A stretch of 64,000 nucleotides of DNA from Eledone cirrhosa. Its lineage: Eukaryota. Made by a program: the position numbers and the translations under genes. This document shows positions 3,610 through 61,556 of this stretch, one piece after another. The DNA lies in NCBI GenBank assembly GCA_964016885.1, contig OZ024743.1:246512001-246576000 (forward strand), given 5' to 3'. The notes beneath the pieces are model-generated. The model saw nothing but the letters and a program-made list of their open reading frames with translations, was not told the DNA's origin and searched no databases. Every line of letters begins with the position of its first letter. The stretch's first letter is position 1.

Positions 3610-4938
3610 TCATCATCATCATCGTTTAACGTCCCTGTTCCACGCTTGCATGGGTTTGGACGGGGGTTTTCCCACTTGAGGCAAGAGTGGTTGTCTTGCT
3701 CGCATAGGACTGTCTGGCGGGTTTTCTAAAGCTGGATGCCCTTCCTAACACCAACCACATTTACAGTGTGGGGCTGGGAGGTTTTTACCGTGTTGCCTAC
3801 ATGGCCACATTACAGCATGGACTGTCTGGCGTGTTTTCTACAGCTGGATGCCCTTCCTAACACCAACCACATTTACAGTGTGGGACTGGGAGGTTTTTAC
3901 CGTGTTGCCTACACGGTCACATTACAGCGTGGACTGTGTGTTTTTTTTTGTCGTGACACCTACACGATCTCGTTTGTTTCGGCCTGGATGTTGTGGCACC
4001 AACATAACTTTGCATTGAAGGGGGCGGTGTGGATGGGGTGGGACGGGGGTGTATTTTGTTAGAGATGCCTACTGACTAGTAGGTTTTACTTTGTATTTAG
4101 GTAAGGCGGGTCTTCTCTGTTACTGAGTACCGCCAAAAGTCTCGGTCCAGTGACATTGTCTTGGAGAGGTGTAAGTGTGTGAGGTCGGAATTTATCAGCT
4201 CGTCCCAGGTTTTTCTGGGTCTGCCTACTCCGTGGCTACCATCTATCTTTATTGCCCTGCACTTTGTTATGCAGCTGTCGTATTTCATGCGCATCACGTG
4301 ACCATACCAACGTAGCCTTCTCTCGAGTAAACAACATCCGATCCCTCTTATTTCTAATTTTTTCCTTAGTTCGTTTATGCTTTGCCGTTCACGTATATTA
4401 CTATTACACATCCAGCGGAGCATGCAAGCTTCGTTCCTCTCTAGTCTGCATATATCCTCTGCACACAATGCCCGGGTCTCACTGCCATGCAACATTGCTG
4501 TTCGTATGCAGGCATCATACAACCTGCCTTTCATTTTTAGGGAGAACCCTTTAGCGGCTAATAGTGGTATAAGCTTTCTGAACTTTTTCCATCCAGTTCT
4601 GACTCTAGCTACTGTACTTTCAGAGCACCCTCCCCCACTGCTGATTTTGTCACCCAGGTAACGGAAGCTGTCCACTATTTCTATAGAAGCCTCTGCGCAA
4701 TTGAAAGAGTTAGTATTTTGTGGGCACTTGCTGCTACTTATTGCACCAGAGCACCGGCCACATGTAAAATCTGTGTTCTTAGTTAGCTTACCTGTGATCC
4801 CACTACATCTTTTATGTACCCATACTTTGCATTTGGGACATAAAATGGAGTTTCTACCTACGCCTTTCCTACACACTGAGCATGGCCATTTCTCGGAGGG
4901 GACCGGCGCCTTATTTTCTTTCCTACAAACTAGAACTT
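3610..4938 (-). mobile_element. RTE-clade LINE, 5'-truncated (PHD-like finger, RT C-terminus, 3' UTR, (GAT)n tail)
   Basis: ORF 4097-4876 has FRYLG, LHGSE and RRLRWYGHV motifs; (CAT)n at 3610; close match to 24900-26119. Confidence 0.92.
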
Positions 4939-5146
4939 TATATATATATATATATAATTGGTGTGGGATGCTTAAAGCGTCCGTAAGCGGTAGGCCGTTT
5001 GAGCACTCGATGCTCTTACAGAGCAGAGTATGATATCACATAAGAAACGGAGAATCAGTTTTGCGACGAATAAAATTTATTAGACATATTACAATCGTTT
5101 CTCTGGCGATCAGCTCGAGGCTCGATCGATGTAATGATTGAACCTG

Positions 5147-6050: not shown

Positions 6051-9040
6051 TCTGGAAAATGGACAGAGAGTGTACTTCACTGAGATCACTGCTCATCAGT
6101 TGGCACAATCATCACATGGCACTACACTAACTGCTTTCTTTAAACTCTGCCAGAATGATGAATTTGCTCGATCCCTCCTATATGCTGAAGTCCCAACATA
6201 CTACACCTACTAGACCTGGAATCAAAGAAAGCAGGGTCATTTAGTGGAAGGTCATGAAGTCAAGTCAAGTGATGCTATTGGGCGTGTTTACAATGTCCAT
6301 CCCAACAACAGAGAATGTTTTTATTTATGGTTACTTCTGTATACTGTTCGAGGACCAACGTCATTTGAGGATCTTAGGTGCTTCAGAGGAAGGGAGTGCG
6401 CAACATACCAAGAAGCATGTAAACAGCATGGACTCCTGCATGACAATGGACACTGGAAGAAGTGCCTAGAAGAAGCAGCAATCACTCAAGTAGCCAGTCA
6501 AATAAGACAATTATTTGCTATCATGCTCAGAGCATGTGGAATTGAGGAAGCTCATCTACTCTGGCAGGAGTACAAAAACAATATGTCGGACGACTATCTA
6601 CACCTAGCTCGAATACATCATGGCATTATGTATATGGAATATACCCCCAGGATTTACAATCAAGCTCTCTGTGACCTGTCCCATCGAGTTCAGGCAATGA
6701 ATAGCACATTAGCTAACTGCAGGATGCCAGAGTGAGATGAAGAAATGGAGGTAGCACAAGACATTTTTCAGGAGACAAACTACAATATTCAAGCATTGCG
6801 TAAGTTTGTGGATGAAAATGAACCTCGATTGATGGATGACCAGAAATATGCCTACCACAACACCATCGAAAACATTCAAAATGACAGGGGAGGACTTTTC
6901 TTCATCGATGCTCCTTCTGGCACAGGCAAGACATTCCTCATAAACCTCCTGCTTGCAAAAGTTCGCCAAAAGCAACATATTGCCCCTGATGTGGCTTCAA
7001 GTGGCATTGCAGCAACACTTCTGGATGGAGGAAGAACTGCACACTCCATGTTTAAGCTGCCCATAGATCTCACACGGCATGAACAATCTTTTTGCAAGAA
7101 GAACTCACCCAAGGGCAAGCTTCTGCAAACATGCAAGATGATAATTTGGGATGAAGCTACTATGAGCCATAAAGGAGCAATTGAAGCTTTGGACCGGACG
7201 ATAAGGGATCTGAGAGAAAATAGTTGCATAATGGGAGGAGTGACAATGGTTCTTGCTGGTGATTTCAAATAAACTCTGCCTGTAATTCTTCAAGGGACTT
7301 GAGCTGATCAGGTCAATGCCTGTCTGAAAACATCCTCTCTCTGGCCCCACTTTCAGCTGCTGAACCTTACAACCAATATGCAAGTGCACTTAACTGGTGA
7401 TGAAGGTGTCAGTGAGTTTGCCAACCAACTACTTAAATTGGGAAATGGACTTCTTGAAAAGGACTCCAATGACCATATTCAGTTGTCATTTGGCCATATC
7501 ATTGACACAGAACAAGAACTGATTGCCAGAGTGTTTCCAAACATTCAAACTAGGCAATGTGATCCGAAATGGCTCTGTGAACGAGCAATATTAGCATCTA
7601 AAAATGTTGCTGTGAAAGAAATCAACAGACGGCTGCTGGAGATGTTACCGGGAGAGAAAATATGCTACAAATCAGTTGACACAAGACCAGGTTGTAAACT
7701 ATCCAACTGAATTTTTGAACAGTCTTGAACAAGCGGGAATTCCTCCACACAACCTGATACTGAAGCTTGAAGCATCGGTTATGCTACTTTGCAATCTGGA
7801 TTCTCCAAAACTTTGTAATGGCACAAGACTCATCATCAAAAATATGATGTCCAATGTTCTAGAAGTTGCAATCATGTCAAGAAAATTTGCTGGTGACAAT
7901 TGTTTCATTCCCAGAATACCTCTGAAGCCAACTGATTTGCCATTTGAATTTCAAAGACTTCAATTTCCGATCAGGCTCAGTTTTGCCATGACCATTAATA
8001 AATCTCAAGGGCAATCATTGAAAGTCGTTGGGTTGAATCTGGCAGATCCTGTCTTTTCACACGGTCAACTCTATGTTGGCACACCAAGGGTTGGGAACCC
8101 TGATTGTCTCTTCATTGTGACACCACAGGGCAAAACCAAGTATGTTGTTTATCCAGAGGCTTTGGAATGAGCAATGTCGTAATTCCTCATTCAATGACAA
8201 TACACACAGATCCTAATTCCTTAGTCATGTAGTTTGCAAGGAATTCTGAAGCCGCAAATTTACTGCATGATGTTGCTTTGGAAGAATATGCAGGCATTCC
8301 CGGGTACCTCTGCTATATAAAGTAGTATAAGTGAGGACTTTGTTGGATAGAAATAGCAGCCAAATTTCCTTCGAATCCCACCTTACTTTCTCAGGTATGT
8401 ATATATGTATGAAGCAAAAAGGAACGGTTCTATGTGATAACTCGAAATATTAGAAATATTAGCAAAATCCATTTCAAATCACAAACAACTGTCTTACACA
8501 CATACATGTGCGTGTATGTATCTATGTATGTCATGTGAGCCACTATAACTGTTGGTATAGCTAATAGAAATAGAAAACAAATCTCCCTCAAACAAGATCC
8601 TACTGCCATAGAGGCAAAGATTGGTGAAATCTACAGTGTACAAATTTAAATACACTTTCCCCGAATTACAGAAATGAGTAAGTAAATGCTTCATTCAATC
8701 ATAAGCCAATGCTAAATTTATTTTCTTATTTTATAAAATCTAAATGCATTTTTTTGGTCATGCCCTTTTCACTGACAACATACCTAATGATTCATCTATG
8801 AGTAAAGCATTATATATGCTGACTGTAATAGGGAGCAGTATTAAAAAAATCACCACTGGAAAAAACTAAATTTTTATCTAGATGATTTACTTTGACCAAA
8901 CGGCAATAAATATTCTGCTATAATTCCTACTTTGGTTAAAATTCAGCAATCATATTTGAATGGTCAAATATTTTGCAATGTGTGCCAAATATATTGTAAC
9001 TTTCATAAAATACCTGTGTATCACCGGGTAGCTCAGCTAG
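6051..9040 (+). mobile_element. Helitron with decayed RepHel (Pif1-like helicase half)
   Basis: Motifs LENGQRVYF, TTLTAFF, DAPSGTGKT, IIWDEA, GDF, AMTINKSQGQS and FSHGQLYV across frameshifted ORFs 6052-8170; 5' TC, 3' imperfect hairpin plus CTAG at 9037-9040; inserted between A and T. Confidence 0.92.
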
Positions 9041-9121
9041 TTTAATTATAATTGACATATCTCATGATATTTTTGTCAGACCAAACAGAAGGAGGCAAAT
9101 TAATTTTTCTTCATTCTAGAT

Positions 9122-9260
9122 CAGTGGTTCCAAACTTTTTACTCATAGAACAAGGAAAGATATTGTGGTACATATTGTACCTAAATTAAAAAATTTATTC
9201 AAAAGCAGTATTTATACATATTAGCATAGCATAAAGTAGAAATATAGATAATTAAAAGAT
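9122..9260 (+). mobile_element. hAT (Charlie-like) MITE left end
   Basis: TIR CAGTGGTTCCAAAC after TTCTAGAT; homologous to 16212-16324. Confidence 0.65.
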
Positions 9261-9300
9261 ACCGAAAAATTCTTTGTACTTTCTTCTTTACTCAACATAT

Positions 9301-9553
9301 ACAGTCAACATCTTCACACTGTGTCTGTCTATTTATATAACCAATTGACATCAATATTGTTTACTGGATATACAGTGTGTACATGCTGACTGGATATAGA
9401 GTGTGTTGATACTGACTGGATAGATAGATATATAGATAGATAGAGACAGTGTGTAGATGTTGACTGGATAGATAGATAGATAGATAGATAGAGACAGTGA
9501 GTAGATGTTGACTGGATAGATAGACACCGTGTGTAGAGGTTGACTGGATAGAT
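9301..9553. repeat. 30-45 bp minisatellite CAGTCAACATCTACACACTGTGTC(TATC)n, in both orientations
   Basis: The same unit recurs at 12590-12628, 15712-15755 and 15830-16210. Confidence 0.85.
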
Positions 9554-12028
9554 ATCTTTCTTTATTTGCCACAGGGGCATACAAAAATGGGACATTACAA
9601 AACGTGACGGCGGGGGTTTTACATAAAAATAACTTTAACATTAATAAATAACAATAAACTATATATAATAAAATAACAATTGAAATCCCCAATAGGAGGG
9701 AACGTTACTGCAGGGTTGTTTTACACCCCGTGGATAGAACAACCCTCAACACCAGGAACACGTTTTGTAGGTGTTCCTGTTTTCCCTCTGTTTATCTTCC
9801 TCAACCTACAGGTTTATATACAGAGAAGGCCCATTCACTCGGGCCATTTTTACCACATTCAGCGAATTTACTGGGGTGTAGCACCTCTGTCTCCACTCTC
9901 ACCTTCCTTCTGAAGTGATACTTAAAGAAGGGGATAAGTTGTTGTCCGGAGAGAAAGGTGTTTGCCCTCAGTCCTTTTAACCTCGTCCACCATATTACGT
10001 CTTTCGCCATAGCCACCAGACAGAGGAAAACCGCCTCTCCTTCGTTCTTAAATGAAGGCGGCGGGGTGATCCTCACGATGGACTCGACGGACAACTGGAT
10101 GCGTCCCACACGTGACAGCAGCTGTTCGACATAATTCCACAGGTCGGTCACCCCTGGGCATTGAACAATTGCGTGCAGAACGGTTTCAATGTCCTGCTCG
10201 CATCTTGGACAGGTCATTTTGGCAGGATCTCTGCCAGGGCATCCGTGCCTGAGGATTTTGTCTCAAACTGGTAGAGCTCCTCAGTAGCACTGCCAGGCCA
10301 GAGACCTCTGGAAGTTATCCATAGACCCTGGACGGAAAGTCCTTCCGAACAGACTGGTCAGTTCGTCCTCCTCAATGCCTAGAGTTTCCCCAAGAACATT
10401 GTCGCACTTATCCTCCACTAATCCCCTATAGAATGTTGAAGTGTAGTCTCCACTGATTGCCGTTTCCGCTTGGTAGAGGGCTGTGTGCGCCTGAAAGCAC
10501 TCGAGGTGCCAGGCACCCATTTTCGGTCTTCGCTTGACCCAGGACTGCAGCTCTGTTAGTGAGACGAGTTGTGGAAGAGCTTGTCTCACAAACGACAGCC
10601 ACACCGGTTCACCAGTCAGGAATACCTGGTGATGGCGTAGCCTCAGCGCATGTTTGCGCATCATCAGCCATGGCATGCCCAGCCCCCCGTTAGAAGGGTG
10701 TTGACAGCAGATGGATCTCTTCACCAATGGAGCCTGTTTCTTCCAGAGGAACTTGAAGAGTAGGCGTTCCATTTTGGTAAGGTATTCACGGGGGCAAGGC
10801 ACGACTGTCAAGCGGTAGTAGATGATGGACGCTATGTAAGTGTTCGCCACCTCCGCTCGACCTTTCACGGAGAGTTTGCACTCAGCCCACTTCTGGGTGA
10901 GTGCAAACACCTTCGCCGTGACCTCGTTCAAGTTCTTGTCCACCTGGAGGTCTGGACCGAACCAGACCCCAAGCAATTTCACCGGTCCTTCCTTCCAGCG
11001 TCCAACGACACTGTCGGAAGGCATGGGTTTGCTTCTCCATGTGCCGAGTTACAAACCGACAGGCTTGTTTGGGTTTAGTCTTGCTCCTGTCAACGTTTCG
11101 TATTCCTGTAATAGGTTGCCGATTACCCCGATTTCCGAGGTTTTCAACACCATTACGGTTGTCGTTGGCATAGGCTGACGCTGCTTTCCGCAGTCCTGGT
11201 TCGATCAGGATGCCCTGCAACAGCTCCAACTTCCACAGTAACGGCTCGAGAGTCAGTACATACAGAATCGAGGAGAGAGGGCATCCCTGACGGATGGAGC
11301 GCATGATTTGGAATGGCTCTGATAGGTAGCCATTCACCTTGACTGCCAAGCAGATACTGGTGTGCATGGCAGCGATCCAGCCTCTGAAGACGGGACCGAA
11401 GCTGGCCGCCTTGAGAACTGCTTCCAAGTATTGATCGTCGATCCTATCAAATGCCTTAGACTGATCTATGATGTATCGCATGAGGTGGAAGTTGTCGCGT
11501 ATGGACCTGGTTGGGATTGCACATGTTTCGGTTTTCTCAACGACAAGCACCAGCCTTGCTGCTAACAACTTGGCCAAAATCTTTAACTCTGTGTTGAGCA
11601 GAGTTATGGGCCTGAAATTGCTTATCTCATCCCCCTTGTTCTCATCTTTCCTGATCAGCGTTACTACGCCTCTGCCTACAGAACTGGGAATCCTCCCGTT
11701 CTGCTGCCAGTTGCAGTAGACCGCTTCGAGGATGCCAGAGAATAAGTCTGGCATGCCTATGTAAAACTCATAGGGTAGACCATCTAAACCGGGTGATTTG
11801 CATTTCCCGCAGCGGCCTAGGGCATCTTCTATTTTGCCCGCTGTGATCGGCCTTTCGCAACTCTCCGCATCCGTGCTCGAGAGTCGCGGTACGCCGTCGA
11901 GGTAGGAGCTGAAGTCCATCATTTCGTTCGATGTACCGCTTTGTCCGAACAGTTGTGCAAAATGCTGCTGGAAGGCCGTGCACATCTGCTTGTATTCAAG
12001 TATAATGCGTCCATCTTTGTCTTGCAAA
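9554..12028 (-). mobile_element. Tx1/L1-clade LINE, 5'-truncated, decayed ORF2
   Basis: SPGLDGL, NFRPITLLN, DQSKAFD, RQGCPLS, KLLGVWFG, GGLGMP and C-terminal CPRC..H..C motifs; 3' end GTGGCAAATAAAGAAA. Confidence 0.9.
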
Positions 12029-12035
12029 GATAGAT

Positions 12036-12589
12036 ATATTTCTATTTATTGCCACGAGGGCGCAATAGAAGGGGACAAATACAAGGGGCGGAGTTTACAC
12101 AAAAAGGCGAGTAAAGAAAACAAATAACAAATATAAAATTAACAATAAAGTCTTCAATAGAGAGGAGGCGTTTTGGGAGGTCGCACACACCCCCGAAAAA
12201 AGTGTGCAACCCTTCTCCTCAGGAGTACAGAGAGAGGGTGCTCCCTCATTCCTTCATCTTTTCCACCTACAGGCTGATGTAGAGAGAAGGCCCATTCACA
12301 CGAGCCATTCTCGCCACTTTCACCTACCTTTCATAAAAACGACTGGGGTGGAGCACCTCTCTCTCCATCCTGATCCTTCTTCCGAAATGATATCGGAAGA
12401 AACGGATCAGTTGTTGGCCAGAGAGAAAGGTGCCTGACCTCAGTCCTTTCAGACGCGTCCACCATACAACCTCTTTCACCATGGCTATTACGCACAGAAA
12501 CACCGCCTCTCCTTCATTTTTGAAGGGGGGAGGCGGTTTAATTGTTACAATGACCTCGGTGGTCAACCGGATCGGTCCCACCCGTGACA
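12036..12589 (-). mobile_element. Tx1/L1-clade LINE 3' fragment
   Basis: ORF2 C-terminus (VVWWTRLKGL) and the same 3' end as the neighbouring copies. Confidence 0.88.
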
Positions 12590-12628
12590 GATAGATAGAC
12601 ACAGTGTGTAGAGGTTGACTGGATAGAT

Positions 12629-15600
12629 ATGTTTCTTTATTAGCCACAGAGGCACAAAAGAAGGGGACAAATACAAAGGAGGAAGTTTACATACAATAAA
12701 AACGTGTAAAATACTATCCCAAATGCAATTTAAAATTAATAGATTTTCCCCAATAAGGGGAGACATTACATATGGGTAACACATACCCCCGTAAAAAATG
12801 TGCAACCCTCATCTCCAGGAGTACGAAGAGTGAGTACCCCTTCCTCTCTTCCTCTTTTTCCTCAACCTACAGGCTGATATAGAGAGAAGGCCCATTCACT
12901 CGGGCCATTCTCGCCACTTTCACCCACCTTTCATAAAACTTGCTGGGGCACAGCACCTCTCTCTCCATCCTGATTCTTCTTCCAAAGTGGTATTTGAAAA
13001 AAAGAATCAGTTGTTGGCCGGAGAGAAAGGTGTCTGACCTCAGCCCTTTTAACCTCGTCCACCATAGTTATCACACAAAGGAAAACCGCCTCTCCTTCGT
13101 TTTTGAAGGAGGGTGGCGGTTTGATCATGACAATGGACTCCGTGGTCAACCGGATTGGTCCCACCCGTGAGAATAGTCATTCTACATAGCCCCACAGGTC
13201 GGTAACGCTCGGGCAGTGTACGAATGCATGCGCGATGGTTTCTTCGCCTCGCACGCATCTCGGACAGATATTTTTGGAAGGGTCCCTTCCCGGGGCGCCC
13301 ATGTCTGTAGAGCTTGTCTCAAACTGGTAAAGCTCCTCGGTAGCACTGCCAGGCCAGGGACTTTTGGAAGTTGTCCATCAGTCCCGGGCAGAAGGTCCTA
13401 CCGAACAGACTAGCCAGTTCGTCTTCCTCTATGCCTAGAGTTTCTCCGAGCACGTCGTCACACTTTCTGCGGACAAACCCTCTATAGAACGACGAAGTGG
13501 AGTCTCCACTGATCGCCGAGTCCGCCTGCCAGAGGGCTGTGAGCGCCTGAGCACATTCGATGTGCCAGTCACCCATTTTCCTCGGTCTTTGCTTGACCCA
13601 GGACTGCAGCTCGATCAGCGAGACGAGTCGTGGGAAGGCTTGCCTCACGAACGGGCCCACACCGGTTGTCAGGTGAGGAATATGTTTGCGCATCGTCAGC
13701 CACAGCATCCCCAGCCCTCCGTTGGAAGGGTGTTGGCAGCAGATGGATCTTCTCACCAAAGGAGCCCGTTTCTTCCAAAGGAATTGGAAGAGCGCGCGCT
13801 CCATTTTGGTGAGAGTTTTGGCTGGACAAGGCACGACGGTCAAGCGGTAGTAGATGACGGACGCTATAAAAGTATTCGCCACCTCCGCTCGACCTTTCAA
13901 GGATAGTTTGCACTCGGCCCACTTCTGAGTGAGCGCAAACACCTTGGTCATCACCTCGTTCCAGTTCTTCTCCACCTGGAGGTCCGGACCAAACCAGACC
14001 CGAACAGCTTCACCGGTCCTTCCGTCCAGCGTCTGTCGACGCCATCGGAAGGAATCGGTTTGCCTCTCCACGATCCGAGTTGCAAACCAACGGACTTGTC
14101 CCGGTTCAGCTTCACTCCTGTGAACCTTTCATATTCCTTCAGTAAGGTGCCGACTTCCTCGATTTGCGAGGTGCTCGACACCATTACTGTCACATCGTCG
14201 GCATAGGCCGATGCCACTTTCCGCAGTCCCGGTTCTAGAGGGATGCCCTACAATAGCTCCAACTTCCGCAGTAGTGGCTCGAGAGTCAGTACTTACAGAA
14301 GGGAGGAGAGAGGGCATCCCTGTCGGATGGATCGCGTGATATGGAACGGCTCCGAGAGGTAGCCGTTCACCTTGACCCTTGAGCAGATGTTGCTGTTATG
14401 CCTTGCAGCAATCCAGCCCCTGAACACGAGTCCGAAGCCTGCCACCTCAGGCACCGCATCCAGGTAACGATGGTCAACCCTATCGAGATCCAAGTTGATC
14501 AGGGTTTACACCCTACCCTCTCTATGATGTCTCGCATGAGGTGGAGGTTGTCGTGTATGGACCTGGTCGGGATGTCTGCGTGTCTGCGCTTCTCCCACCA
14601 GGTTTTCGAACGACAAGCGCCAGCCTCTTTGCCAACACCTTGGCCAAAATCTGTAACTCTGTGTTTAGCAGAGTTATGGGCCGGAAGTTGCCTATGTCAT
14701 CCCCCTTATTCTCGTCCTTCCTGACTAGTGTGACTACGCCCCTGGTCACAATACTGGGAATTCTTCCGTTCTGCTGCCAGTTGCAGTAGACCGCTTCCAG
14801 GAGACCAGAGAACAAGTCCGGCATTGGTACGTAAAATTCGTAGGGTAGGCTGTCGAGACCTGGAGATTTGCGTTTGCCGCATTGGCTCAACGAGTCCCCT
14901 ACCTCAGCGGCTGAAATCGGCTTTTCGCAGAACTTCACCTCGCTGTCCGAGAGTCGCAGTAGGCCGTCGAGGTATGGACCGAAATCCATAGACCATCCCG
15001 GCGCGCCGCCCTGCCTGAACAGCTGAGCAAAGTGCCGCTGAAAGGCCGCGCACATCTGCTTCGGTTCAGGTATCACGCGTCCGTCTTGGTCCTTCAAAGA
15101 CCGAATCGTGGATTTGTTGCCACTTTTCGCCTCCATCACCCGGGCTCAGCTAACAGCTTTGGCTCCCTTTTTATCCAGAGCACGTATTTTGCTTCTGACA
15201 ACGCAGCCCTCTAATTGCCACTTCTAATTGCCTCTTCTACTTTATCTACCAGTTCCTTCTCGGTCCTATTTCTATCTAACGTTAATTCTTTACTAAAAAC
15301 TAACGAGTCTAATCTAACTGCCTTCTTGAGAGAGTACCACCATCTGTTATTGACAATAGCCCCTGTCAAGTGCTGTTTAACTAAAGTGCGAATCTGTCTA
15401 CCATAAGCTTTGCATGTCGGTAACGACAAGTTCAGCTTCCAGTAGCCGGGTCCTTGTCTATGGGTTCTATCAAGGTTGACTAGTTTGTGATCTGAATAGG
15501 CAACCATGAACATTTGTGGACAGCTTAACATGTCCCTATCCTTATTTCTAACTAGAACCCTGTCTAGGTACGATCTAGATGTTCCGCTACGATTAGTCCA

Positions 15601-15712
15601 CGTCCACAGTGGCACAGTCGGAAAATCTAGTCGATATCTATCGGCCAGGTCAAATTGGCCGATTAACTGTTTGAGGCTGTTACATCCCCCTTTATCGGGA
15701 CATGCTCCCACA
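12629..15712 (-). mobile_element. Tx1/L1-clade LINE truncated within the APE domain
   Basis: SYLDRV, SDH and WKLN (APE end), RT motifs including AYADDV, several frameshifts. Confidence 0.9.
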
Positions 15713-16210
15713 GATAGATAGATAGACACCGTGTGTAGATGTTGACTGGATAGATCGACACATCATCATTATCCTTTGACATGATTGGTATTCCAGCCAG
15801 CCAGGCCAAAGAATGATAATGTGTATACCTACCCAGTTAACATCTACACACTGTGTCTATATATACAGGCAACATCTACACACTGTGTCTATCTATATAA
15901 TCAAATCTACACACTGTTTATCTATCCAGTCAACAGCAAACTCACACTCTATCCATCCAATCAAATTCTATACACTGTGTCTATCCAGTCAATATCAGTA
16001 CACCATGTCTATCTATCCAGTCAACATCTACACAGTATCTATCCACTTAACATCTACACACTGTCCATTTAGTCAATATCAGCACACTGTACACGACTGT
16101 ATGTAAAATCCCCGGCATGTGTCTTTGTATTGTCCCCTTTTCTTGTGCGCCCTTGTGGCAAATAAAGAAATATATCTAGTCAACATCTACATATCCAGTT
16201 AACATCTCCA
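15712..16210. repeat. Minisatellite array containing a short Tx1 3' end (about 16120-16170, + strand)
   Basis: TGTCCCCTTTTC...CCTTGTGGCAAATAAAGAAA is followed by TATATCTAGTCAACATCTAC. Confidence 0.8.
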
Positions 16211-16211
16211 C

Positions 16212-17448
16212 CAATGGTTGCCAAACTTCTTTTATTCACAGCACATTTTAGATAAAGTAAAATATATTTTGGCACACTTTGCTATTTATACATATTAACA
16301 TAGTATAAAGTAGAAATATAGATACATGCCAGCTCGACCAGCACTGTCTCACATGTTTTCGCTTGGCCTCACAACCCCACTGCAGTGTCTGGCACAATGC
16401 CTTACCTTCGTTTTGCCTGGCACACAGCTGGATAATGATAACCTGCGAATCAGGGTTTCTCTGAGGCTTGGCCTCTGGATCTGCGAGCCACTTAAATGTT
16501 ACTGTGGATCCACCATAGACTCTTTCAACCTCCACCCACTGTCCTGTTGTTACAGTGCCGGCCGCTTTCCACACTCAATAAGGTCATAAAGCATGGCTTG
16601 GATGCTGCAGGCTTCCCCTCTCAGCTTGAGCTGGCAGGGCTGGACTGAGAGGACAGCATGACTATCTTCCCATTTCATTGTAGTAAACCCCTCACCTGGG
16701 ATGCCACATGCAGCAACACATTCTCCAGTGGCAACCTGGTGCAATCTGCATCTAGCCCAGGCTCTGTTGTACTTTGTGCCGAGGAGAGTAAACTCTCCAA
16801 ATATTGGTCACTCTCTGACAGGTTTGTGGTCGAGCCTGATCAGTTGTGACTTCTGGTGTCCTTGGCCCTAGGGCCACCTCCCCACTCACCACCATCAGCA
16901 CAGAGTTGGCTACCCGCAAGTCTCCCTCATCATTCTCCAGGGAAGCACCTTCTCTATTTTGTCTGTCAGAGCCACATGGTGGCCAGCCCATGGGCCCCTA
17001 TTTGCTCATAATAGTGAGAGATGGAGGTACTGACATTGGGAGTTTGGTTCCTTTGTGTTTGGACCGGGTGTATATGTATATTTATTTACTGCAGCACATA
17101 TTAAAAGTATAATCTGTTTCCAGTGAGGAGTTAAGGGTTAACTCTTTTGATACCAAATTGTTCAAAACCGACTTTGTTTTAAAGAGATTATATTTAATTA
17201 AAAATACTGAAAATACATTTGTACTTCTTTCTTTAATCAATAAATGGAGCAAAGTTATCAATGGTGGTTTTTTGGTAATGTTTTCGTTCTTAGTTTGATT
17301 GTTTTCTACTTTGACAGTTATATATATGGACTTTATTATGAATTTCAATTTGTATTTTTTATGTTTCAAAATCTTGCTCTTTTGTGGCACACTTAATTAC
17401 ATCTTGTGGTACACCAGAGTGCCAAAAGGCACAGTTTGGGAAATGTTG
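16212..17448 (+). mobile_element. hAT (Charlie-like) MITE with a nested CRE fragment
   Basis: Degenerate TIRs CAATGGTTGCCAAAC and GTTTGGGAAATGTTG, the latter followed by CTCTAG. Confidence 0.6.
16340..16990 (+). pseudogene. CRE-clade non-LTR retrotransposon C-terminal fragment (zinc knuckle plus restriction-like endonuclease)
   Basis: [29 protein letters not shown], then PLTWDATC and AEESKLSKY, matching CRE RLE motifs. Confidence 0.75.
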
Positions 17449-17944
17449 CTCTAGCCACTGATTCGCACACATTCATATGTTAACGCTAACCTACACATTC
17501 ATTTTTATGCTGAAGGCATCTTTGAATTAAAAATTCAACAGTCTATTTTGATTGTCTAATAAAAATGTCAAATATTTTTATAATGCTGTAAACAATGATT
17601 GTCCTTGTTTATTCTGGTGGGAAAGTAAAGTCTTGAATTTTACAATTTGCTGTAAAAACAAAATTTTTTTAAAAATTTAAATACCTAATTCCTTTCTATT
17701 TTATTTCATTCCCTTCTTTATTTAATTAAATGAGAATTTATTTCAGAAATATTTCCCAGAAAATCTTTTAAAAGATTTTTAATAAATTCTATTGATTTAG
17801 AATTTCATATTCACTTGTATATATTTACAAACAGGAAGAGAGAAAAGAAAAGAAAAGAAAAGAAAAGAAAAGAAAAGAAAAGAAAAGAAAAGGGGGGAAT
17901 AAATAAAAAGAAGAGGAAGAGGCAAACTCTACATGTTTGATGGT

Positions 17945-18320
17945 ACATCTCAGTTGCAGTCTGTGGACAAGAAGCCGAAAGCATTGCCACATAGAACAGC
18001 CAGTGATACCCGCTGCATCAGCCATTCCTCCCCATGGCCTCCTTTCTTAAGCAAGATATTTTCTTCCCAATTTGGCAGAGGAAAACAACATTTCCGGAGA
18101 CGAAAAGCAAGTGCCACTAAGAGGAATTGGTGAGTCACTGCCTGGCATTTAGTTATCTGCCTCTTTGCATTACATGCAGTAATATCCATGTTTGTGACTG
18201 AAGTGATGATGCGGACACTGAAGAACATGTTGCTACATGTGCCATCCAAGATGAGTGACTTACCCCTCTTGAATGGGCTGAGGATTATCCTGTCTGTACA
18301 TCTATCATCACTGCAGTATG
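17945..18320 (-). pseudogene. Second CRE-type RLE fragment
   Basis: PFKRGKSLILDGTCSN and WLMQRVSLAVLCGNA resemble the QRLSxAVQRGNA C-terminal motif. Confidence 0.65.
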
Positions 18321-19902
18321 GTTTCCGTTTATAGATAAAAAATAAAGGACATGACTGTATTGTTTAGGAATGAATTAAAGCTGTATTAATCTTTTATTTA
18401 GTTGTATTGAACATTTATCATGACATTTTTGACAAGCTAATCAAAATGGGTCAAATGGATTTTTCTTCATTCTAGACTTTTATCTTATTTACTTAGAGAT
18501 TATGAAATTAGGTAGAATCCCCCATCAGCAATAAGTATTTAGATCCCTGGCAAAAAGCCCTGAGGTTTTTGTCTGGTAGGGATTTTGTTCAGTGGGGTTT
18601 TGTTCAATAAGATTTTTGTCCATAACCCAAGTATTTATTAGGTAATAAAAATCCATTGTCATACAAATGTACTTAAATAACCTTCTATAAATGACTTCCC
18701 ATGTAATATGATAGCTAGAGTACTTCCTCACTCAGCGTGGCGTTCTAGTTATTATATGATAATTGCAAAAGAGAACATTTATGGCAAACTAATTCAAAGC
18801 TTTTGTTCTCATTTTCAAGATTTCATCTATATCTTTTGTACACAGGGTATACAATCGCATTTGAAACTTTAGCTATTGTCGCCTTATGTATCTTGACTAT
18901 TGGCTACAAGTTTTCATTTGAACTTCTTGTGATAACAGTACTAGACACTATGCAAAAACATTACAAAGTTCATAAGACAAATAATTAAAATTCATCACAG
19001 CCAGATTCATTTCATTTATTAGAAGAAATGAATCTGGCATGATGAATTTTAACTAAAAAGACTGTAAGGCAATTTTACAAATCAATTTGAAACACTGATA
19101 CACTTCTAGGGACAAGCATGAATGCGTATGGTGGCGAATTGGAAGAGATGTTTGAATGTTGGTTCTTGTACTGACTCTTTTTGCTCAGAGTTCAAATCCT
19201 ACCAAGATTAACTTTGCCTTTGATCCTTTTGGTGTTGATAAAATAAAGTACCAGATTGGGGTGGTAGAATAACAGAATTGTTAGAGTACTGGACAAGATG
19301 TTGTGCAGTACTTGTTTCAGCACTTTGGAATCTGAGTTCAAATCCTCCTGCTGCAGACCTGGGTGATAAGCTTAATCCATTGCCTGGTTTAACATTAAAC
19401 CAGGCTCTTTAGCAGTCTACTCTATTACTAATATTCAGGCCAGATCTCCAGGTTGAAAATACCTTCCTCCTATCAATCTCGGATGCCTTGAAAAGGGTCA
19501 TGGGTGAGGGTCATGGGCACTACACTTCCCTCCTCAACTAAATAGTAGATAAAACAATAACAACAACAAAACATGGATATGTGAAAACAGCTCTGATTAG
19601 GACGGAAACTGTTTAATTAGCAACAAAAGAAGACTACTACAGTTATTATATTCTCTTGCAATAAATACTCCTATTTAGAGGTTCATTGCTTTATAACTGG
19701 GCTCAATGCCAATGTAGGCATAACAAGAACAACAGAAAGCTGAAGTTAAACTGCCAGTGCCAGACTGGGCTGACCTGAAACTGAAAATTACAAACAGAGG
19801 TATTAGGAATGGTTAAACAATAAAACTAAAAGCCTGATAGTATTTTACAATTTCAATGTTTTTATGAGTTTCCTTTTTTATTTGTTTAAAATAGAAAACC
19901 AA

Positions 19903-20133: not shown

Positions 20134-22052
20134 ATCATCATCATCATCATCACCGTTTTACGTTCGTTCTTTCACCCTAGCATAGGTTAGACGGGTTGTC
20201 CTGTTGTGACCAGTGTCCGGTCGGCTGACCTTGTCTTGCTCATACGGGAACTGATTCTGGCTTGATTTCTACAGCTGGATGCCCTTCCTAACACCATTCT
20301 CATTTACAGTGAGTGCTGGGTGCTTTTTTCCGGGGAACCTACACGTCCACTTTACAGTGTGGGCTGGGTGCTTTATTGCTGTGGCACCTCCACAACCACT
20401 TTGCAGTAGGAGGGTGTGGAGGCATATTGTCTATATGCTTCAGCTTCGGCTTGTACCCATGGGTGGTCGGGTCTTCTGTATTACTGTGTGACGCCAGAGG
20501 TCACGGTCGTGTGTCATCGCCTTTCAGAGGTATAATTAGGTAAGGTCGGCTTTTATCACCTCATCCCAGGTCATCTTGGGTCTCCCCACTCCGCGGTTTC
20601 CAGTGCTCTGCACCTTTTTATGCAGCTGTCATCCTTCATACGCATCACATGTCCATACCAACGCAACCGCCTCTCCTGCACACAGCATTTGATTCCTCTT
20701 ATGCTCAGTCTCTCTCTCAATTCATTTATACTTTGCCGTTCACGTATATTACTATTACACATCCATCGGAGCATGCAGGCTTCGTGTCTTTCTAATCTAC
20801 GCAAGTCTTTTACAGACAGCGCCCAGGTCTCACTACCATGTAACATTGCTGTTCATATACACGCATCATACAGTCTGCCTTTCATTTTGAAGGAAAAGCC
20901 TTTTGCAGCTAGCAGTGGCAGTAGCTCCCTGAACTTCTTCCATCCCATTCTTACCCTAGTTATGGTACTTTCCGAACACCCACCTCCGCTGCTAATTCGG
21001 TCACCTAGGTAGCAGAAGCTGTCTACTGTTTCTATAGAGCCCTCCCAGAGTTTGGTGGTACTTGTTTCCTGTGGCTGTTTGCTGCTTGCTGTCCCAGCAC
21101 AGCTGCTACATGTGAAGCCTACATTCTTAATTAAGCTTCCTGAGATCCCGCTACATCTCTTGTGTACCCATTGTTTGCATTTGGGGCACAAAATGGAGTT
21201 CCTACCTACACCTTTCCTACATACTGAGTAAGGCCATTTCCCTGAGGGGATCTGGGTTCTGTTTTCTCGTCTACTTACAAGGACCTTAGTCTTTGTCAGG
21301 TTGACTTTGAGACCCTTTCTTTCTAGTCGCTGCTTCCAAGTTTGGAATTTCTTCTCTAGTTCTACCATAGATTCAACTATAAGTGCGAGGTCATCTGCAT
21401 ACAGGAGTTCCCATGGGCATCCGGTCTTAAACTCTTCCGTTATTGCCTGCAGGACTATGATGAACAGGAGAGGGCTAACAACAGAGCCCTGGTGGACCCC
21501 AACCTGTACCCTAAATTCCTCGCTATACTCATTGCTAATCCTAACTTTGCTGACTGCTCCTCTATACATGGCTTGTACAGCTTTCACAAGCCATTCATCT
21601 ACTCCTAGTTTTCTAAGAGCCCACCAGATTATAGCACGTGGAACTCTGTCAAAGGCTTTCTCGAGATCGATGAATGCCAGGCAGAGTGGCTTACTTTTAG
21701 CTAGGTACTTTTCCTGTAACTGCCTCACAAGGAAGAGGGCATCAGTGGTGCCTCTTCCTGGCACAAACCCAAATTGCCTCTCATCTAGTTTCACCCGGTC
21801 CCTAATCAACTGTGCTATAACTCTTTCTGTTACTTTCATGACCTGGTCCATCAGCTTTATACCTTTATAGTTTCCTCTATCTAGTGCATCACCTTTACCT
21901 TTGTAGCAGTTGACAATGATGCTACTGCACCAATCCTTTGGTATGACACCTTCTAGTATTACCTGGTTAACAATACGTGTGGTTATGGTGTGACCTACAG
22001 ACCCAGATGCCTTCAGCATCTCGGCAGCTATACCCGATGGACCGGTTGCCTT
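20134..22052 (-). mobile_element. RTE-clade LINE, 5'-truncated (RT with PHD-like insert)
   Basis: ORF 20853-22019 has QFGF, DLEKAFD, GVHQGS, LYADDL and FCYLG; (CAT)n tail. Confidence 0.92.
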
Positions 22053-22083
22053 CCCTGTATATATATATATGTATTAAATGTAT

Positions 22084-22123: not shown

Positions 22124-25100
22124 CCTGCTACGAGGTACGAATCTCAGAATTTGTCAATGCTTATTAATGGTCAGACCTCGTCGCCCCCCTCCCCCCTGCA
22201 AAATGTAATGTAAATGTCATTTTTCTTGTCTCTCCAGCCTATCGGTCCATTCATTCATATATCCGTATCATCGCCCAGAATCCAATCTTTTGCTCTCTCT
22301 CAATGCTATTCTATAATTCTGTCTGGTTGTTCTAAATAATCTTCTTGTATTTTAAAATCCCATTATTCACTTATTATTACTGTTATATGCTTGTCCAATT
22401 ATGCCCAAAATTCGAAGATTTTATTTAAACCCTCTTGCTAACTACCCCATACCCCTCCCACCCGCCCCATTCTCCACCATTATTATTAGGACCAATCATA
22501 AGTCAGCGGCCTATGCTATCACTTCTGGTTGCTTTCTGATATGATGGATGGACTATGGAATTCTGGAGAGTCTGAAAAATTTGGACACTCAGTGACAATG
22601 CCAAAGATAAAGACAAATTCACCTCATGCTGCCGGACGAAAAGGCAAGGACTCCCCCTCTTTGTTTCGGCCGCGAATGGCCCACATAACCCCAACCCCAT
22701 CTCCCCTCCCCGCGCCCCGCCGTTCCCACCCACCAAATGCAATCCAAAACTTCAGAGTTGGTACCATGAATGTAGGCACCTTAAAAGGTCGCTCTAACGA
22801 GGTTGTAGAAATGCTTGAACGTAAGGAGGTTGATGTTTGCTGTATCCAAAAGACCAGGTGGAGGGATGGGTCTGCTAGATTCATTGTGGGTAAAAAACGA
22901 TGCTATAAGCTTTTCTGTGTGGGAAATGACAATGGGCTGGGTGGGGTAGGAATCATGTTAGCAGAAAAATGGGTACATAAGATAATAGACGTAAATAGAG
23001 TGAACGACAGAATAATTAAAATAAGACTTATTCTAAATAGAACTACTGTGACAGTAATATCTGCGTATGCACCCCAATCCGGACTGCCTGGCGCTATAAA
23101 AACAGATTCTATGAGACATTGATGCTCGCTACCTCCCAAATAACCGACAGTGACTATATAATTATTGCTGGCGACCTAAATGGTCACGTTGGACAACATT
23201 GTGACGGCTATGACGGAATCCATGGAGGCTATGGGTTTGGTACTGGAAATGAGGAAGGCTCCAGAATCCTGGAATTCTGTGACGCAAATAACCTAACTAT
23301 CTGTAACACTAACTTCAAAAAACGAGACAATCACTTGATCACCTATAGATCAGGGGAACACGCCAGTCAGATAGATTATATCCTTACCAGAAGACTAAAT
23401 CCCTCCCTCATGACTCTCCCAACATAGACTCATAGTCAGCGACCTCATAGTCAGGACAAGACATACTCGACAACAGAGGAGGACTATCCTCAGGAGAAAA
23501 ATATGGAAGCTAAAGGACCCCACAACAAGTAATAAATTTAAAAGCATATTACTTGATGCTTTTGATAGTAAGGCAGAGCAATTAGAGCCATACAATATAG
23601 AGGAACAGTGAGAATTCCTGAAAGGTAACCTGCTGAAGGCGGCAGATGAAGTCTGTGGCTGGAGCAGGCCTATAGGCAGGAGGAGAGTAACGTGGTGGTG
23701 GAACAGTAAGGTGGAGGAGTCAATTAAGGCCAAAAAGCAGGCTTGGAAAGTATGGCGGGATGGGGGAAGTAGAGAAGACTATCAAGTGGCCAGGGGGGAA
23801 GCTAGGAGACAAGTGTACTTTGCAAGAAGGGAAGCAGAAGAAAGAAAGTTCAAGCATGTTCTACAACGCGAGGACCAAAAACGTGAGGTGTTCAGGATTG
23901 CTAGGCAATGTGTCAAGGAAAATATTGTCGGGGAGAAGTGTCCTTAATGATGATGGTGTACTTGCCATCACTGACGCTGATAAGAAGGTAGCTTGGAAGT
24001 GTCACTACGAAAGGCTACTAAATGAGGAGAATAAATGGGAGAAAGACAGTCTCCCCCACATCGATCCAATAGAGGGACCAGCAGTGCTAGTTGAAGGTAG
24101 TATAATAAGTAAGGCAATCAAAGATATGAAGACGGGTAAGGCGGCTGGGCCTTCGGAAATAGTTGCTGAAATGCTGAAAGCATCTGGAACGGTGGGACAC
24201 ACTATGATCACCCGGATAGTAAACCAAGTCATACAGAATGGGGCCGTTCCGAAGGACTGGCGTAGCATCATCATCATTAACTGCTACAAGAGTAAAGGAG
24301 ATGCCCTAGATAGGGGTAACTATAGAGGCATTAAATTAATCGACCAGGTCATGAAGGTCACAGAAAAAGTAATAGCGCAACTAATCAGAGAACGAATTGA
24401 TCTAGATGAAATGCAGTTCGGGTTTGTGTCAGGTAAAAGTACCACAGACGCTCTTTTCATTGTACGACAACTACAGGAGAAGTACCTAGCTAAAAGTAAA
24501 CCCCCTATACTTAGCTTTTGTTGACTTGGAGAAAGCCTTTGCCAGAGTCCCCCACTCTATTATCTGGTGGGCTCTTAGAAAACTAGGTGTTGATGAATGG
24601 CTTGTGAGAGCTATACAAGCCATGTATAAAGAAACAGTCAGCAAGGTTAGAATTAACAACGAATATAGTGAAGAGTTTAGCGTAAAAGTTGGTGTTCATC
24701 AGGGCTCCGTTCTTAGCCCCCTACTATTTATTATTGCCCTTCAGGCTATAACAGAGGAGTTCAAGACCGGCTGCCCATGGGAACTCCTATATGCAGATGA
24801 TCTAACGCTCATAGCTGAATCAATGGCTGAACTAGAGAAGAAATTCCAAACATGGAAGCATGGCCTAGAATCAAAAGGCCTTAAAGTTAACTTGTCTAAG
24901 ACTAAAGTTCTAGCTTGTGGAAAGGAAAATAGGGCACCGGTCCCTTCTGGGAAATGGCCATGCTCAGTGTGTAGGAAAGGAGTAGGCAGAAACTCCATTT
25001 TATGTCCCAAATGCAAAGTATGGGTGCATAAAATATGTAGTGGGATCACAGGTAAGCTAACTAAGAATATAGATTTTATATGTGGCCGGTGCTCAGGTGC

Positions 25101-26119
25101 AATAAGTAGCAGCAAGTGCCCACAGAATACTAGCTCATTCCATTGCACAGATGGTTCTATAGAAACAGTGGACACCTTCCGTTACCTGGGTGACAAAATC
25201 AGCAGTGGTGGAGGGTGCTCTGAAAGTACAGTAGCTAGAGTCAGAACGGGATGGAAAAAGTTCAGAGAGCTTATACCACTATTGGCCGCTAAAGGTTTCT
25301 CTCTAAAAATGAAAGGCAGGATGTATGATGCCTGCATACGAACAGCAATGTTACATGGCAGTGAGACCTGGGCATTGTGTGCAGAGGATATACGCAGACT
25401 GGAGAGAAACGAAGCTTGCATGCTCCGCTGGATGTGTAATAGTAATATACGTGAACGGCAAAGCATAAACGAACTAAGGGAGAAATTAGGAATAAGAGGG
25501 ATCAGATGTTGTTTACTCGAGAGAAGACTACGTTGGTACGGTCACGTGATGCACATGAAAGACGACAGCTGTATAAAAAAGTGCAGGGCGATAAAAATAG
25601 ACGGTAGCCACGGAGTAGGCAGACCCAGAAAAACCTGGGACGACTTGATAAATTCCGACCCTCACACACTTACACCTCTCCAAGACAATGTCACTGGACC
25701 GAGATCTTTGGCGCTACACAGTAATACAGAAGACCCGCCTTGCCTAAGTACAAAGCGAAACCTACAGTCAGTAGGCACCTCTAACAAAAATACACCCCCG
25801 TCCCACCACCCCACCCCTTTCGATGTAAAGTTATGTTGGTACCACAACATCCAGTCCGAAATAAATGAGGTCGTGTAGGTGTCACGAAAAAAAAAAACAC
25901 ACAGTCCACGCTGTAATGTGGCCGTGTAGGTAACACGGTTAAAACCTCCCAGTACACACTGTAAACGTGGTTGGTGTTAGGAAGAGCATCCAGCCGTAGA
26001 AAACCCGCCAGACAGTCCTATACGTGCAAGACAACCAATCTTGCCTCAAGTGAGAAAACTCCCGTCCAAACCCATGCAAGCGTGGAAGATGGACGTTAAA
26101 CGATGATGATGATGATGAT
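22120..26119 (+). mobile_element. Near full-length RTE-clade LINE (APE plus RT), frameshifted
   Basis: APE motifs (GTMNVGTL, SAYAPQ, GDLNGHVG, QIDYIL), RT motifs (EKAF, HQGS, YADD) and (GAT)n tail; the 5' boundary is approximate. Confidence 0.9.
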
Positions 26120-27219: not shown

Positions 27220-27666
27220 CAGTGTAACGTGCAATTACTGTAGGTTCACCCCAGTGAGCACTCAATGCGTAGATTCCAGTCTGTAAAGAGGCGTAGAACT
27301 AAGCAGAGTGTAAATATAATGATAACAGGACGATTTGTTAATGTCTTTATTGTGGTTAGAAAAAGCTATCTCACTTACCGCTTTTCACAGGCGCCGCTAA
27401 ATTCCACTGCAGGTTACTCCTCTTCCACGTGCGTCCAACTGCTTAACACCGGGAGCTGCCCAAACTCGCGTCCACACCGTGTGCTGGTCACCACTAGAGA
27501 GAGGCCCTCTGCTGGCCCTTCCGGTCGAGCATCCTTCCGGCCAAAAGACCCTTCCGGTCGAGCACTCCCCCGCCTCCGGCCACCGCACGCCACACACCCT
27601 TCCGGTCGAGCACTCCCCCGCCTCCGGCCACCGCACGCCACACCATACCCACACGCCCCCCTGATC

Positions 27667-30538: not shown

Positions 30539-31248
30539 TGGTCGCAGTTAGTAGCGATGTGGCCTGGTCGCTTACACCGGTAGCAAATTATCTCCGGCTT
30601 CGACTCTCTACAGTCTCTAGCCATGTGCGGGCCCTGGCACCGAAAACAGCGCCCCCTAAACGCACGCGGACGGCCGCGTGCCGAGGTTGCCTCCCTTTCA
30701 CCATTTCGCTGCCAGGTGTCCTGAGCCTCTGTAGTTGCTATCGCCGCAACACTCTTTTTGGCATCTTCCGCTATGATCCGGGCTTGTTCCACCAGTGAAC
30801 GCATTTCCATCTCTTTATAACCCGGGACTTGCTGCAGTTTCACCGCTATGTAGTCCGGAAATCCATTGATGAACGCCAACCGCACCGTGCGTTCGCATTC
30901 CGCCTGGTAACCGGCCAACATAGCCAACCGCTTTATTTCCGCTGCGAAAATGTCGACGCGCTCACCATTCCACCTGATTCTCGCCAGCTTAGCAAAAGCT
31001 GCCAACGGTCCTTCGGCGAATGCATCCATCAGACGCCTCTCAATCTTCTGCACATCTCTTTGGCTGTGCTCGTCCAACTCAAGGAAGAGTACCAGCGCGT
31101 CGCCCTCGAGGTACAATGCCATGAGGCCGGCCACGTCCTCTATCTTCTGCAAGCTTGCGACCAGCCGAACCATCCGCAGCCAAGCAACGACATCACCTTC
31201 CCCGGTGAATGCCCTGATAGCTTCGTTCATCCGTAGTCTTGTCGTCAT
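30487..31248 (-). CDS. gag: Gag with two zinc knuckles
   Basis: 253-aa open frame with CFRCQGPHMARDC and CYRCKRPGHIATNC. Confidence 0.9.
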   Translation of the reverse strand: MTTRLRMNEAIRAFTGEGDVVAWLRMVRLVASLQKIEDVAGLMALYLEGDALVLFLELDEHSQRDVQKIERRLMDAFAEGPLAAFAKLARIRWNGERVDIFAAEIKRLAMLAGYQAECERTVRLAFINGFPDYIAVKLQQVPGYKEMEMRSLVEQARIIAEDAKKSVAAIATTEAQDTWQRNGEREATSARGRPRAFRGRCFRCQGPHMARDCRESKPEIICYRCKRPGHIATNCDQGNDPRRTTAPVVAPYE

Positions 31249-31300
31249 CTTCTGATTTGTCTTGCGGCAAGTGGTTTTTTTTTTTTTTTTTTTTTTAGTC

Positions 31301-31312
31301 GCCGAAATAGCT
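31301..31312 (-). promoter_or_regulatory. Non-canonical primer-binding site complementary to tRNA-Phe(GAA) nt 1-12
   Basis: Element-sense AGCTATTTCGGC directly follows the 5' LTR; plus-strand GCCGAAATAGCT equals the start of metazoan tRNA-Phe as I recall it. Confidence 0.6.
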
Positions 31313-31785
31313 TCTGGTTAGAAAAAGCTATCTCACTTACCGCTTTTCACAGGCGCCGCTAAATTCCACTGCAGGTTACTCCTCTTCCACGTGCGTCCAA
31401 CTGCTTAACACCGGGAGCTGCCCAAACTCGCGTCCACACCGTGTGCTGGTCACCACTAGAGAGAGGCCCTCTGCTGGCCCTTCCGGTCGAGCATCCTTCC
31501 GGCCAAAAGACCCTTCCGGTCGAGCACTCCCCCGCCTCCGGCCACCGCACGCCACACACCCTTCCGGTCGAGCATTCCCCCGCCTCCGGCCACCGCACGC
31601 CACACCATACCCACATTTATTATGTTTATTGAGTAGTGACGTGTGTTTCGCTATTGATCAGCTCAAGGTTCAATCTGTATCGATCTGGCCCAGCTCTGGA
31701 ATCAAAAGCTCATCGGACCTCTGCTGTGGTAATGACAATAAACGTAATGAAGACATAACAAGTCACCCATTTATTATTATTATTA

Positions 31786-35709: not shown

Positions 35710-35711
<2 letters not shown>
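31786..35711 (+). mobile_element. Tx1/L1-clade LINE with a full but disrupted ORF2 (APE, RT, zinc knuckle)
   Basis: GSINSR, ISETR, VYAP, GDWN, TDH, DQSKAFD, YADDV and CSRC..H..C motifs; 3' end CCCTTGTGGCCAATAAAGAAA; (ATT)n on both sides. Confidence 0.92.
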
Positions 35712-35755
<44 letters not shown>

Positions 35756-58390: not shown

Positions 58391-58394
58391 ACAC

Positions 58395-61530: not shown

Positions 61531-61556
61531 AATATGGTTTTATAAAGTGGACGACG

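Follow-up and report, generated by a model that had tools for sequence, protein, structure and literature searches.

The 64,000-bp stretch of Eledone cirrhosa DNA analysed here (GCA_964016885.1, contig OZ024743.1, positions 246,512,001 to 246,576,000; hereafter the window) contains a minisatellite array that hosts four copies, A to D, of a retrotransposon coding for an apurinic/apyrimidinic-like endonuclease (APE) and a reverse transcriptase (RT). Without these elements the array measures approximately 630 bp, and the stack of elements expands this 0.6-kb repeat to approximately 7 kb. The minisatellite is absent elsewhere in the window: all 14 matches to its core lie within 9302-16211, and all TATC tracts of at least three units fall inside the array. 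Our analysis confirmed that the four APE-RT copies sit in one minisatellite, in register at its unit junctions. Copy A (9554-12028, minus strand, 2.5 kb) is truncated just upstream of the RT; it keeps the RT, the C-terminal CCHC motif and the 3′ untranslated region (UTR), with three in-frame stops among the mapped codons and a frameshift near 11160. Copy B (12036-12589, minus strand, 0.55 kb) retains the last ~105 codons of the second open reading frame (ORF2), with one stop, and the 3′ UTR. Copy C (12629-15712, minus strand, 3.1 kb) is truncated within the APE domain; it keeps the loop equivalent to βB6-βB5 (WTWTNRSGTSRSYLD), the RT, the CCHC motif and the 3′ UTR, and contains five stops and several frameshifts. 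Copy D (16090-16173, plus strand, ~80 bp), whose 5′ boundary lies between 16090 and 16100, is a 3′ UTR remnant located at a shortened unit junction, with 79% identity to the 3′ end of A over 71 bp. All four copies are 5′-truncated and dead, and A, B and C are arranged head to tail. A sensitive self-search of the whole window identified, besides A-D, a single further copy, E; four of the five copies of the group are located in ~1.2% of the host bases.

The four copies share a terminus, GTGGCnAATAAAGAAA plus three bases (N-A-T); they carry no poly(A) tract and end in AATAAAGAAA-N-AT. The earlier note on this DNA correctly gave the sequence that follows the 3′ ends of A (9554) and C (12629) as ATCTATCCAGTCAAC, and that following the 3′ end of B (12036) as ATCTATC. 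For D its sequence was also right, with an offset of 3 nt: AAAGAAA ends at 16170, TAT follows, and ATCTAGTCAAC begins at 16174. The 5′ truncation points, when mapped on the homolog P0004, differ among the copies (~residue 395 in A, ~1071 in B and 153 in C), and the TATC-type sequence described at these points is found in all three, each of which adjoins ATCTATC. No TATC is present on the 5′ side of D, for which no such claim had been made.

The 7-mer ATCTATC is located on both sides of A, B and C, at 9547-9553, 12029-12035, 12590-12596, 12622-12628 and 15713-15719 (minus strand). The first of these is the copy of the target-site duplication (TSD) on the 3′ side of A, while 12029-12035 is one TSD copy common to the 3′ side of B and the 5′ side of A. 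Between C and B lies a single unit (12590-12628) with ATCTATC at both ends, 12622-12628 being the 3′ TSD of C and 12590-12596 the 5′ TSD of B; the 5′ TSD of C is at 15713-15719. When the 5′ junctions were aligned to a longer homologous copy, A, B and C all proved to start at the base that follows ATCTATC, and the junctions show microhomology of 1-3 nt; for example, an Argonauta homolog reads WEYVGACPD, and copy C starts at VGACPD. A, B and C each carry a 7-bp duplication, which extends to 8 bp (TATCTATC) if the T before it, also found at the element end, is counted. Removing the elements together with one 7-mer each leaves junctions like the unoccupied one at 9505-9532. A TSD of a whole unit (32-39 bp) was suggested by three flanking units that match at 37-38 of 39 positions; we rejected it as unnecessary, given that the unoccupied neighbours U4 and U5 are equally alike (38/39) and that B and A share just 7 bp. 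Overall, a TSD was observed in three of the four copies, and the orientation of the minisatellite unit was respected in all four. Considering that ATCTA starts at 30 of the 629 array positions, the rough probability of three independent 3′ junctions being both in register and in unit orientation is 1e-5, even with insertion confined to the array; this estimate excludes B because its site is shared with A.

The array itself is an old imperfect palindrome centred near 15790. Its left arm, on the minus strand, comprises a distal part (9346-9553) with units of the form CAGTCAACATCTACACACTGTGTCT(ATCT)nATC, as defined by unit parsing and by Tandem Repeats Finder periods of 26, 32 and 48, and a proximal part (15713-15778) with the first unit, including the 5′ TSD of C, and a non-repeat head. 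A spacer at 15779-15802 forms the palindrome centre. On the plus strand, alignment to the left arm places the right-arm head and its more degenerate units at 15803-16089, and unit parsing and the arm alignment place its tail at 16174-16211. A single unit in plus orientation (9297-9335) stands tail-to-tail with the left arm. With the retrotransposon copies skipped, the arms are collinear over their full length, with identity in 232 of 268 aligned columns, and the non-repeat head is common to both (15757-15778 and 15803-15830). DNA folding of 15714-15870 gave -38.4 kcal/mol (z -9.0), a value that none of 200 shuffled sequences reached. The long inverted arms of tandem subrepeats are features of foldback-type elements; a second copy of the array was not found in the 64-kb window, nor was a TSD seen at either end of the array.

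As had been noted, the orientation of the copies flips with the minisatellite: the three copies in the minus arm (A, B and C) are minus-strand insertions, and D, in the plus arm, is a plus-strand one. In the right arm, the sites corresponding to C and to B/A are empty and degenerate, and in the left arm the site corresponding to D is empty. Since the occupied sites are empty in the opposite arm, the flip results from strand-specific insertions that took place separately, rather than from inversion of an existing cluster, an explanation in which we have moderate confidence, as repeat units can misalign.

Pfam searches identified RVT_1 in A (E 2.4e-10) and E, Exo_endo_phos in E (7e-14), and zf-RVT in E, with a weak zf-RVT match in A as well; of the 11 fragments searched, 5 had no Pfam match. 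The copies are collinear with 1150-aa APE-RT proteins (A, C and E along a 1153-aa homolog), with stops and frameshifts, and present the APE-RT-CCHC architecture of ORF2, the APE having been lost from A and B through truncation. Using the RT frame of A as the query, the best named matches were the "Transposon TX1 uncharacterized 149 kDa protein" (170 bits) and the Danio pol-like protein BAC82613.1 (160 bits), compared with 85 bits for human L1 ORF2p. In an RT tree of 48 rows, which holds no reference Tx1 or L1 rows, A, C, E and the homolog P0001 form a clade (100/100), in which A and C group together (99/94), apart from E. Based on the best named matches and the architecture, the A-E group likely belongs to the Tx1 clade. 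In this clade, ORF2 is preceded by an ORF1 that encodes zinc knuckles; in E, a 49-codon open frame ahead of ORF2 gave two weak multi-stretch matches, neither of them convincing. The closest named relative of the E endonuclease, with 54% identity, is from Argonauta hians, which points to an octopod as the probable host. Against PDB, the endonuclease fragment of C had no match and the endonuclease of E only weak matches to L1-EN, and Rfam gave no match over 8000-18500. None of the best 120 of 1173 matches to BAC82613.1 was a named Kibi, Koshi or Tx1L, and the element identity of this protein was not found in the available excerpts of PMC4889948 and PMC2684134.

Copy E (31786-35711, plus strand) contains a broken ORF2 that spans APE-RT-CCHC and has the same 3′ terminus as A-D. 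It is flanked by (ATT)n at 31773-31785 and 35712-35738, with (ATT)4A on the 5′ side, 186 bp above the ORF2 start, and (ATT)9 on the 3′ side; just six ATT/AAT tracts of at least four units exist in the 64 kb. A 7-bp stagger would agree with the phase of the 5′ tract, an agreement expected by chance in 1 of 3 cases. Homology searches with the upstream part of E (31786-31971) gave no confirmed homolog. E likely represents a sister lineage that uses the same mechanism with an (ATT)n target, and its location in (ATT)n versus that of A-C at TATC suggests a target switch.

The earlier note had described the copies as mutually diverged, in agreement with the 74-84% DNA identity of the mapped codons among A, B and C; at the protein level, B and C are 88% identical. 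Across the six pairwise comparisons of A, B, C and E, over codons filtered by local similarity to P0001, the ratio of nonsynonymous to synonymous substitution rates (dN/dS) ranges from 0.13 to 0.28, with dS from 0.56 to 1.93, and the upper bootstrap bound of pN/pS, the corresponding ratio of proportions, is at most 0.47. When no identity filter was applied, four frame comparisons gave mismatches of 48/28/70, 24/28/74, 17/14/37 and 48/37/86 at the first, second and third codon positions, with a third-position excess in all four. The reference-free spacing of mismatches modulo 3 produced a modest signal only (954/740/698), the codon-based tests being clearer. As the divergence is mostly synonymous, the copies diverged as active, separate source lineages before insertion.

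These results support the interpretation of a family that targets TATC sequence. The alternative named by the earlier note itself, an element-encoded tail combined with local duplication, fails on four counts: the 7-mer is on both sides of the elements, the divergence is biased to synonymous sites, the sites in the other arm are empty, and E has the same terminus with (ATT)n flanks. The presence of the 7-mer at three different 5′ truncation points indicates that it is not a tail. In addition, identity between the 3′ UTRs of A and C amounts to just 62% (47% on average after shuffling), whereas their downstream 39-bp units differ at a single position (38 of 39 identical), a combination of diverged UTRs and near-identical units that is unlike an inherited tail. 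In the window, and thus at one locus, all four copies of the A/B/C/D type are inside the array, and the eight occurrences of ATCTATC outside the array and the elements have no copy. We consider, with a probability of about 0.8, that A-D were inserted sequentially by a Tx1-type lineage whose endonuclease likely recognises an ATCTATC-type motif.

Target-primed reverse transcription is the established mechanism for this class of elements. Under this mechanism, the APE would nick the GATA strand at a T/A step (5′-GATAGAT/AGA), and the RT would copy the RNA from the 3′-OH of the nick, beginning at the AATAAAGAAA-N-AT end. An early stop of the RT would result in 5′ truncation with 1-3 nt of microhomology, and a cut of the second strand 7 nt further, at the ATCTATC/CAGTC boundary, would duplicate the 7-mer. 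This duplication would regenerate the target, so that a second copy could land against the first one (B-TSD-A, in either order). The geometry of the junctions is observed directly; the chemistry of the nick and a specificity determined by the endonuclease are inferred from the established mechanism.

Several observations weigh against this proposal. The evidence comes from one locus with three independent sites, and D shows no TSD at its degenerate site. Of the eight perfect ATCTATC|CAGTC sites in the array, two are occupied and six are empty; the occupation of this boundary (2/8) is not significantly different from that of the other ATCTATC sites (0/16, Fisher p 0.10) or of the inner tract sites (0/7, p 0.27). 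The filter used for dN/dS favours conserved codons. The private variant CAACCTC occurs only in the units directly 3′ of A and C and in 0 of the 12 other core matches; these two units are neighbours in the element-free array. A short C-terminal tree that includes B does not resolve A, B and C from E, and the 5′ boundary of E is deduced from the ATT tract.

Within the same proposal, a generic (TATC)n/(GATA)n microsatellite target, comparable to those of Kibi and Koshi, is quite possible, in which case the minisatellite is used simply for the tracts that it contains. The confinement of the TATC tracts of at least three units to the array is consistent with this possibility, as are the insertion of A or B beside an element end, and not minisatellite, on one side, the location of the sister E in a pure (ATT)n tract, and the (TC)n, (TTC)n, (TTCC)n and (TTTC)n targets of related elements. 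Nevertheless, CAGTC follows each of the two well-defined sites at a distance of exactly 7 nt, and inner insertions are absent from the two longest TATC tracts (9469-9492 and 9419-9444), although this pattern is not significant (2/8 versus 0/7, p 0.27). We lean slightly towards the unit boundary being part of the target.

A weak T/A-step preference combined with a local hotspot or safe haven in palindromic, repeat-rich DNA is an unlikely explanation. The array can extrude a strong hairpin, the window is nearly all mobile-element debris and the site of D is degenerate, all of which would fit; however, such steps abound throughout the AT-rich window, and still four of the five copies concentrate in the small fraction of host bases given above, and the identical 7-bp TSD and register of three copies, together with the strict strand match of four, are not expected from a weak preference.

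We regard it as improbable that the array was seeded by the elements, each carrying a minisatellite unit along as its 3′ tail or through 3′ transduction. Such a carried unit would account for the CAACCTC variant shared only 3′ of A and C, and for the 38/39 match of those units. In contrast, the 7-mer is also present at three different 5′ truncation points, behind B there is only the 7-mer, one unit lies upstream of C, both arms contain many element-free units, E has no unit at all, and divergence is much greater between the UTRs than between the units. Least probable of all is an origin of the cluster from a single insertion that was duplicated locally, as the tandem head-to-tail layout and the inverted duplication of the array itself might suggest, given that the synonymous-biased divergence of every pair, with dN/dS far below 1, effectively refutes it, that the truncation points differ, that flanks are 95-97% identical versus 74-84% for the elements, and that the positions in the two arms are non-homologous.

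Sequential insertion at an ATCTATC-type target can be compared with known systems, for which we used excerpts of PMC4494074, PMC3812793, PMC13282606 and PMC1950540. Microsatellite- and transposon-targeting Tx1 families and tandem insertions that share a TSD are already known (PMC4494074). The Tx1 targets listed in that paper include U2, DNA transposons and the microsatellites (TC)n, (TTC)n, (TTCC)n and (TTTC)n, with satellites named in a figure legend, and the criterion of Kojima for a sequence-specific family is the same repeat in >20% of genome-wide flanks (PMC4494074). Such families also show a fixed insertion position and orientation, with a TSD. As in Kibi at (TC)n, Koshi at (TTC)n and the crocodilian Tx1 elements at (TTCC)n/(TTTC)n, the elements described here are APE-RT elements, likely of the Tx1 group, inserted in register in short tandem repeats, and, as in the Kibi/Koshi group, the target differs between related families. 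Unlike those of Kibi and Koshi, the targets here, ATCTATC for A, B and C or (ATT)n for E, are not pyrimidine-only, and neither is (TC)n or (TTC)n; the likeness is in the mode of targeting.

Dong belongs to the R4-type clade and Waldo and Mino to the R1 clade; therefore, microsatellite targeting shared with them would be convergence. The (ATT)n of E is of the same repeat class as the (TAA)n of Dong, and Waldo and Mino target (ACAY)n/(AC)n (PMC3812793). The microsatellite targets in the excerpts of that paper are ACAY, AC, TC, TTC and TAA, with no "TATC", and the reading of microsatellite targets by APE-type endonucleases is described there as not well understood. Repeated insertion at one position of a repeat has been reported for Tx1L in Tx1D, for the crocodilian Tx1-Mar and SINEU-3 in Mariner-N4, and for Tx1-9_AMi in Harbinger (PMC4494074). 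Tandem SINEU-3 copies "sandwiching a TSD", which have been explained by sequential insertion, share one TSD as our copies do; the TSD is 7-8 bp here versus 16 bp in SINEU-3 and ~10 bp in SINEU-1 (PMC4494074). Human LINE-1 ORF2p has the same APE-RT architecture and nicks at a T/A step (5′-TTTT/AA, PMC1950540), as would the endonuclease proposed here. Unlike human LINE-1, which is promiscuous and has a poly(A) tail, the copies end with the non-poly(A) terminus given above, and the LINE-1 score is 85 bits versus 160-170 for the Tx1-type matches.

In Octopus vulgaris, 80 L1-Tx1 families covering 56.3 Mb have been reported, 13 of them recently active (PMC13282606). If the host is an octopus, the copies probably belong to families of this type; the word "target" appears 0 times in the main text and supplement of that study. 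Our literature searches found no TATC/GATA-targeting Tx1 element and no cephalopod Tx1 target, their scope leaving Repbase and Kojima and Fujiwara 2004 outside, and a search on tandem insertion combined with target preference found nothing. The absence of a TATC target from print is weakly supported, and the target is apparently new.

The loop that aligns with the L1 βB6-βB5 hairpin is kept in both C (NRSGTSRS) and E (NRIGSSRS), and it varies in related proteins too. Repanas et al. showed that the βB6-βB5 loop alters nicking profiles and that alone it does not transfer specificity (PMC1950540); here, we hypothesize that it may play a role in target choice. A more specific scenario, which we consider doubtful, is that an octopod Tx1 lineage specialised on a dispersed foldback-like minisatellite element, possibly between MITE (miniature inverted-repeat transposable element) ends, which it would cut at ATCTATC|CAGTC, while its sister, with 66% protein identity, would target (ATT)n, a few endonuclease residues, e.g., those of the loop, being behind the switch. 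If true, this would provide a natural matched pair for the rewriting of APE target specificity. In a single genome, two sister lineages that are closely related, differ in target and both keep the candidate specificity loop would make the recognition of microsatellite targets testable, and they would add targets to the large, target-uncharacterised Tx1 complement of octopuses (the 80 families of O. vulgaris). The locus also shows how TSD-regenerated targets build element stacks, a phenomenon that is itself known. The target appears to be new for what is a known type of element, and the sister copy makes a helpful comparison.

The array had been described as lying between two hAT MITE left ends. 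Left ends of one MITE-like family are indeed present at 9122 and 16212; the hAT assignment is based on a terminal motif and 8-bp flanks and not on a database match. The first is a left part of ~175 bp (9122-9296, plus strand), preceded by TTCTAGAT and cut where the minisatellite begins, with 78% identity over 157 bp to the family copy at 42524-42670. The second copy (16212-17448, plus strand) has both ends, its right inverted end at 17434-17448 being followed by CTCTAGCC, and a third family copy is located at 42345-42670. Short terminal inverted repeats and an 8-bp TSD are expected of a hAT MITE; complementarity between the right end (17434-17448) and the left ends at 9122 and 16212 is imperfect, and the flanking 8-mers TTCTAGAT and CTCTAGCC agree at five of their eight positions. 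On its own, the search for the MITE terminal motif is at chance level (three matches versus a mean of 1.8). An unrelated insert of ~860 bp (16329 to ~17189) interrupts the second copy, and a 48-bp piece of it resembles 18216-18263.

Other repeats occupy much of the window. On the minus strand, 27350-31615 contains an LTR (long terminal repeat) retrotransposon with zf-CCHC, RT/RNase H and integrase fragments. Its LTRs, at ~27350-27653 and ~31312-31615, match at 302 of 304 positions, indicating a recent insertion, and the right one ends ~170 bp before copy E. Fragments of a PIF1-type helicase at 6214-8170 are probably a decayed Helitron. Several RTE-like copies of long interspersed elements are located at 4097-5035, 20853-22073 and 22502-25878, with a PHD-finger match after the RT (seen at 24490-25875). 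A 62-bp satellite (1-2261; 36.5 copies, 99% match) runs off the window start. A 40-bp minisatellite (58397-59315; 23 copies) has a higher-order period of 317, and two transposase-like frames without a Pfam match adjoin it (57332-58464). Finally, two long frames of 371 and 251 aa at 61527-63516, with no Pfam match at E 0.001, look by eye like a Penelope-type RT and a GIY-YIG endonuclease.

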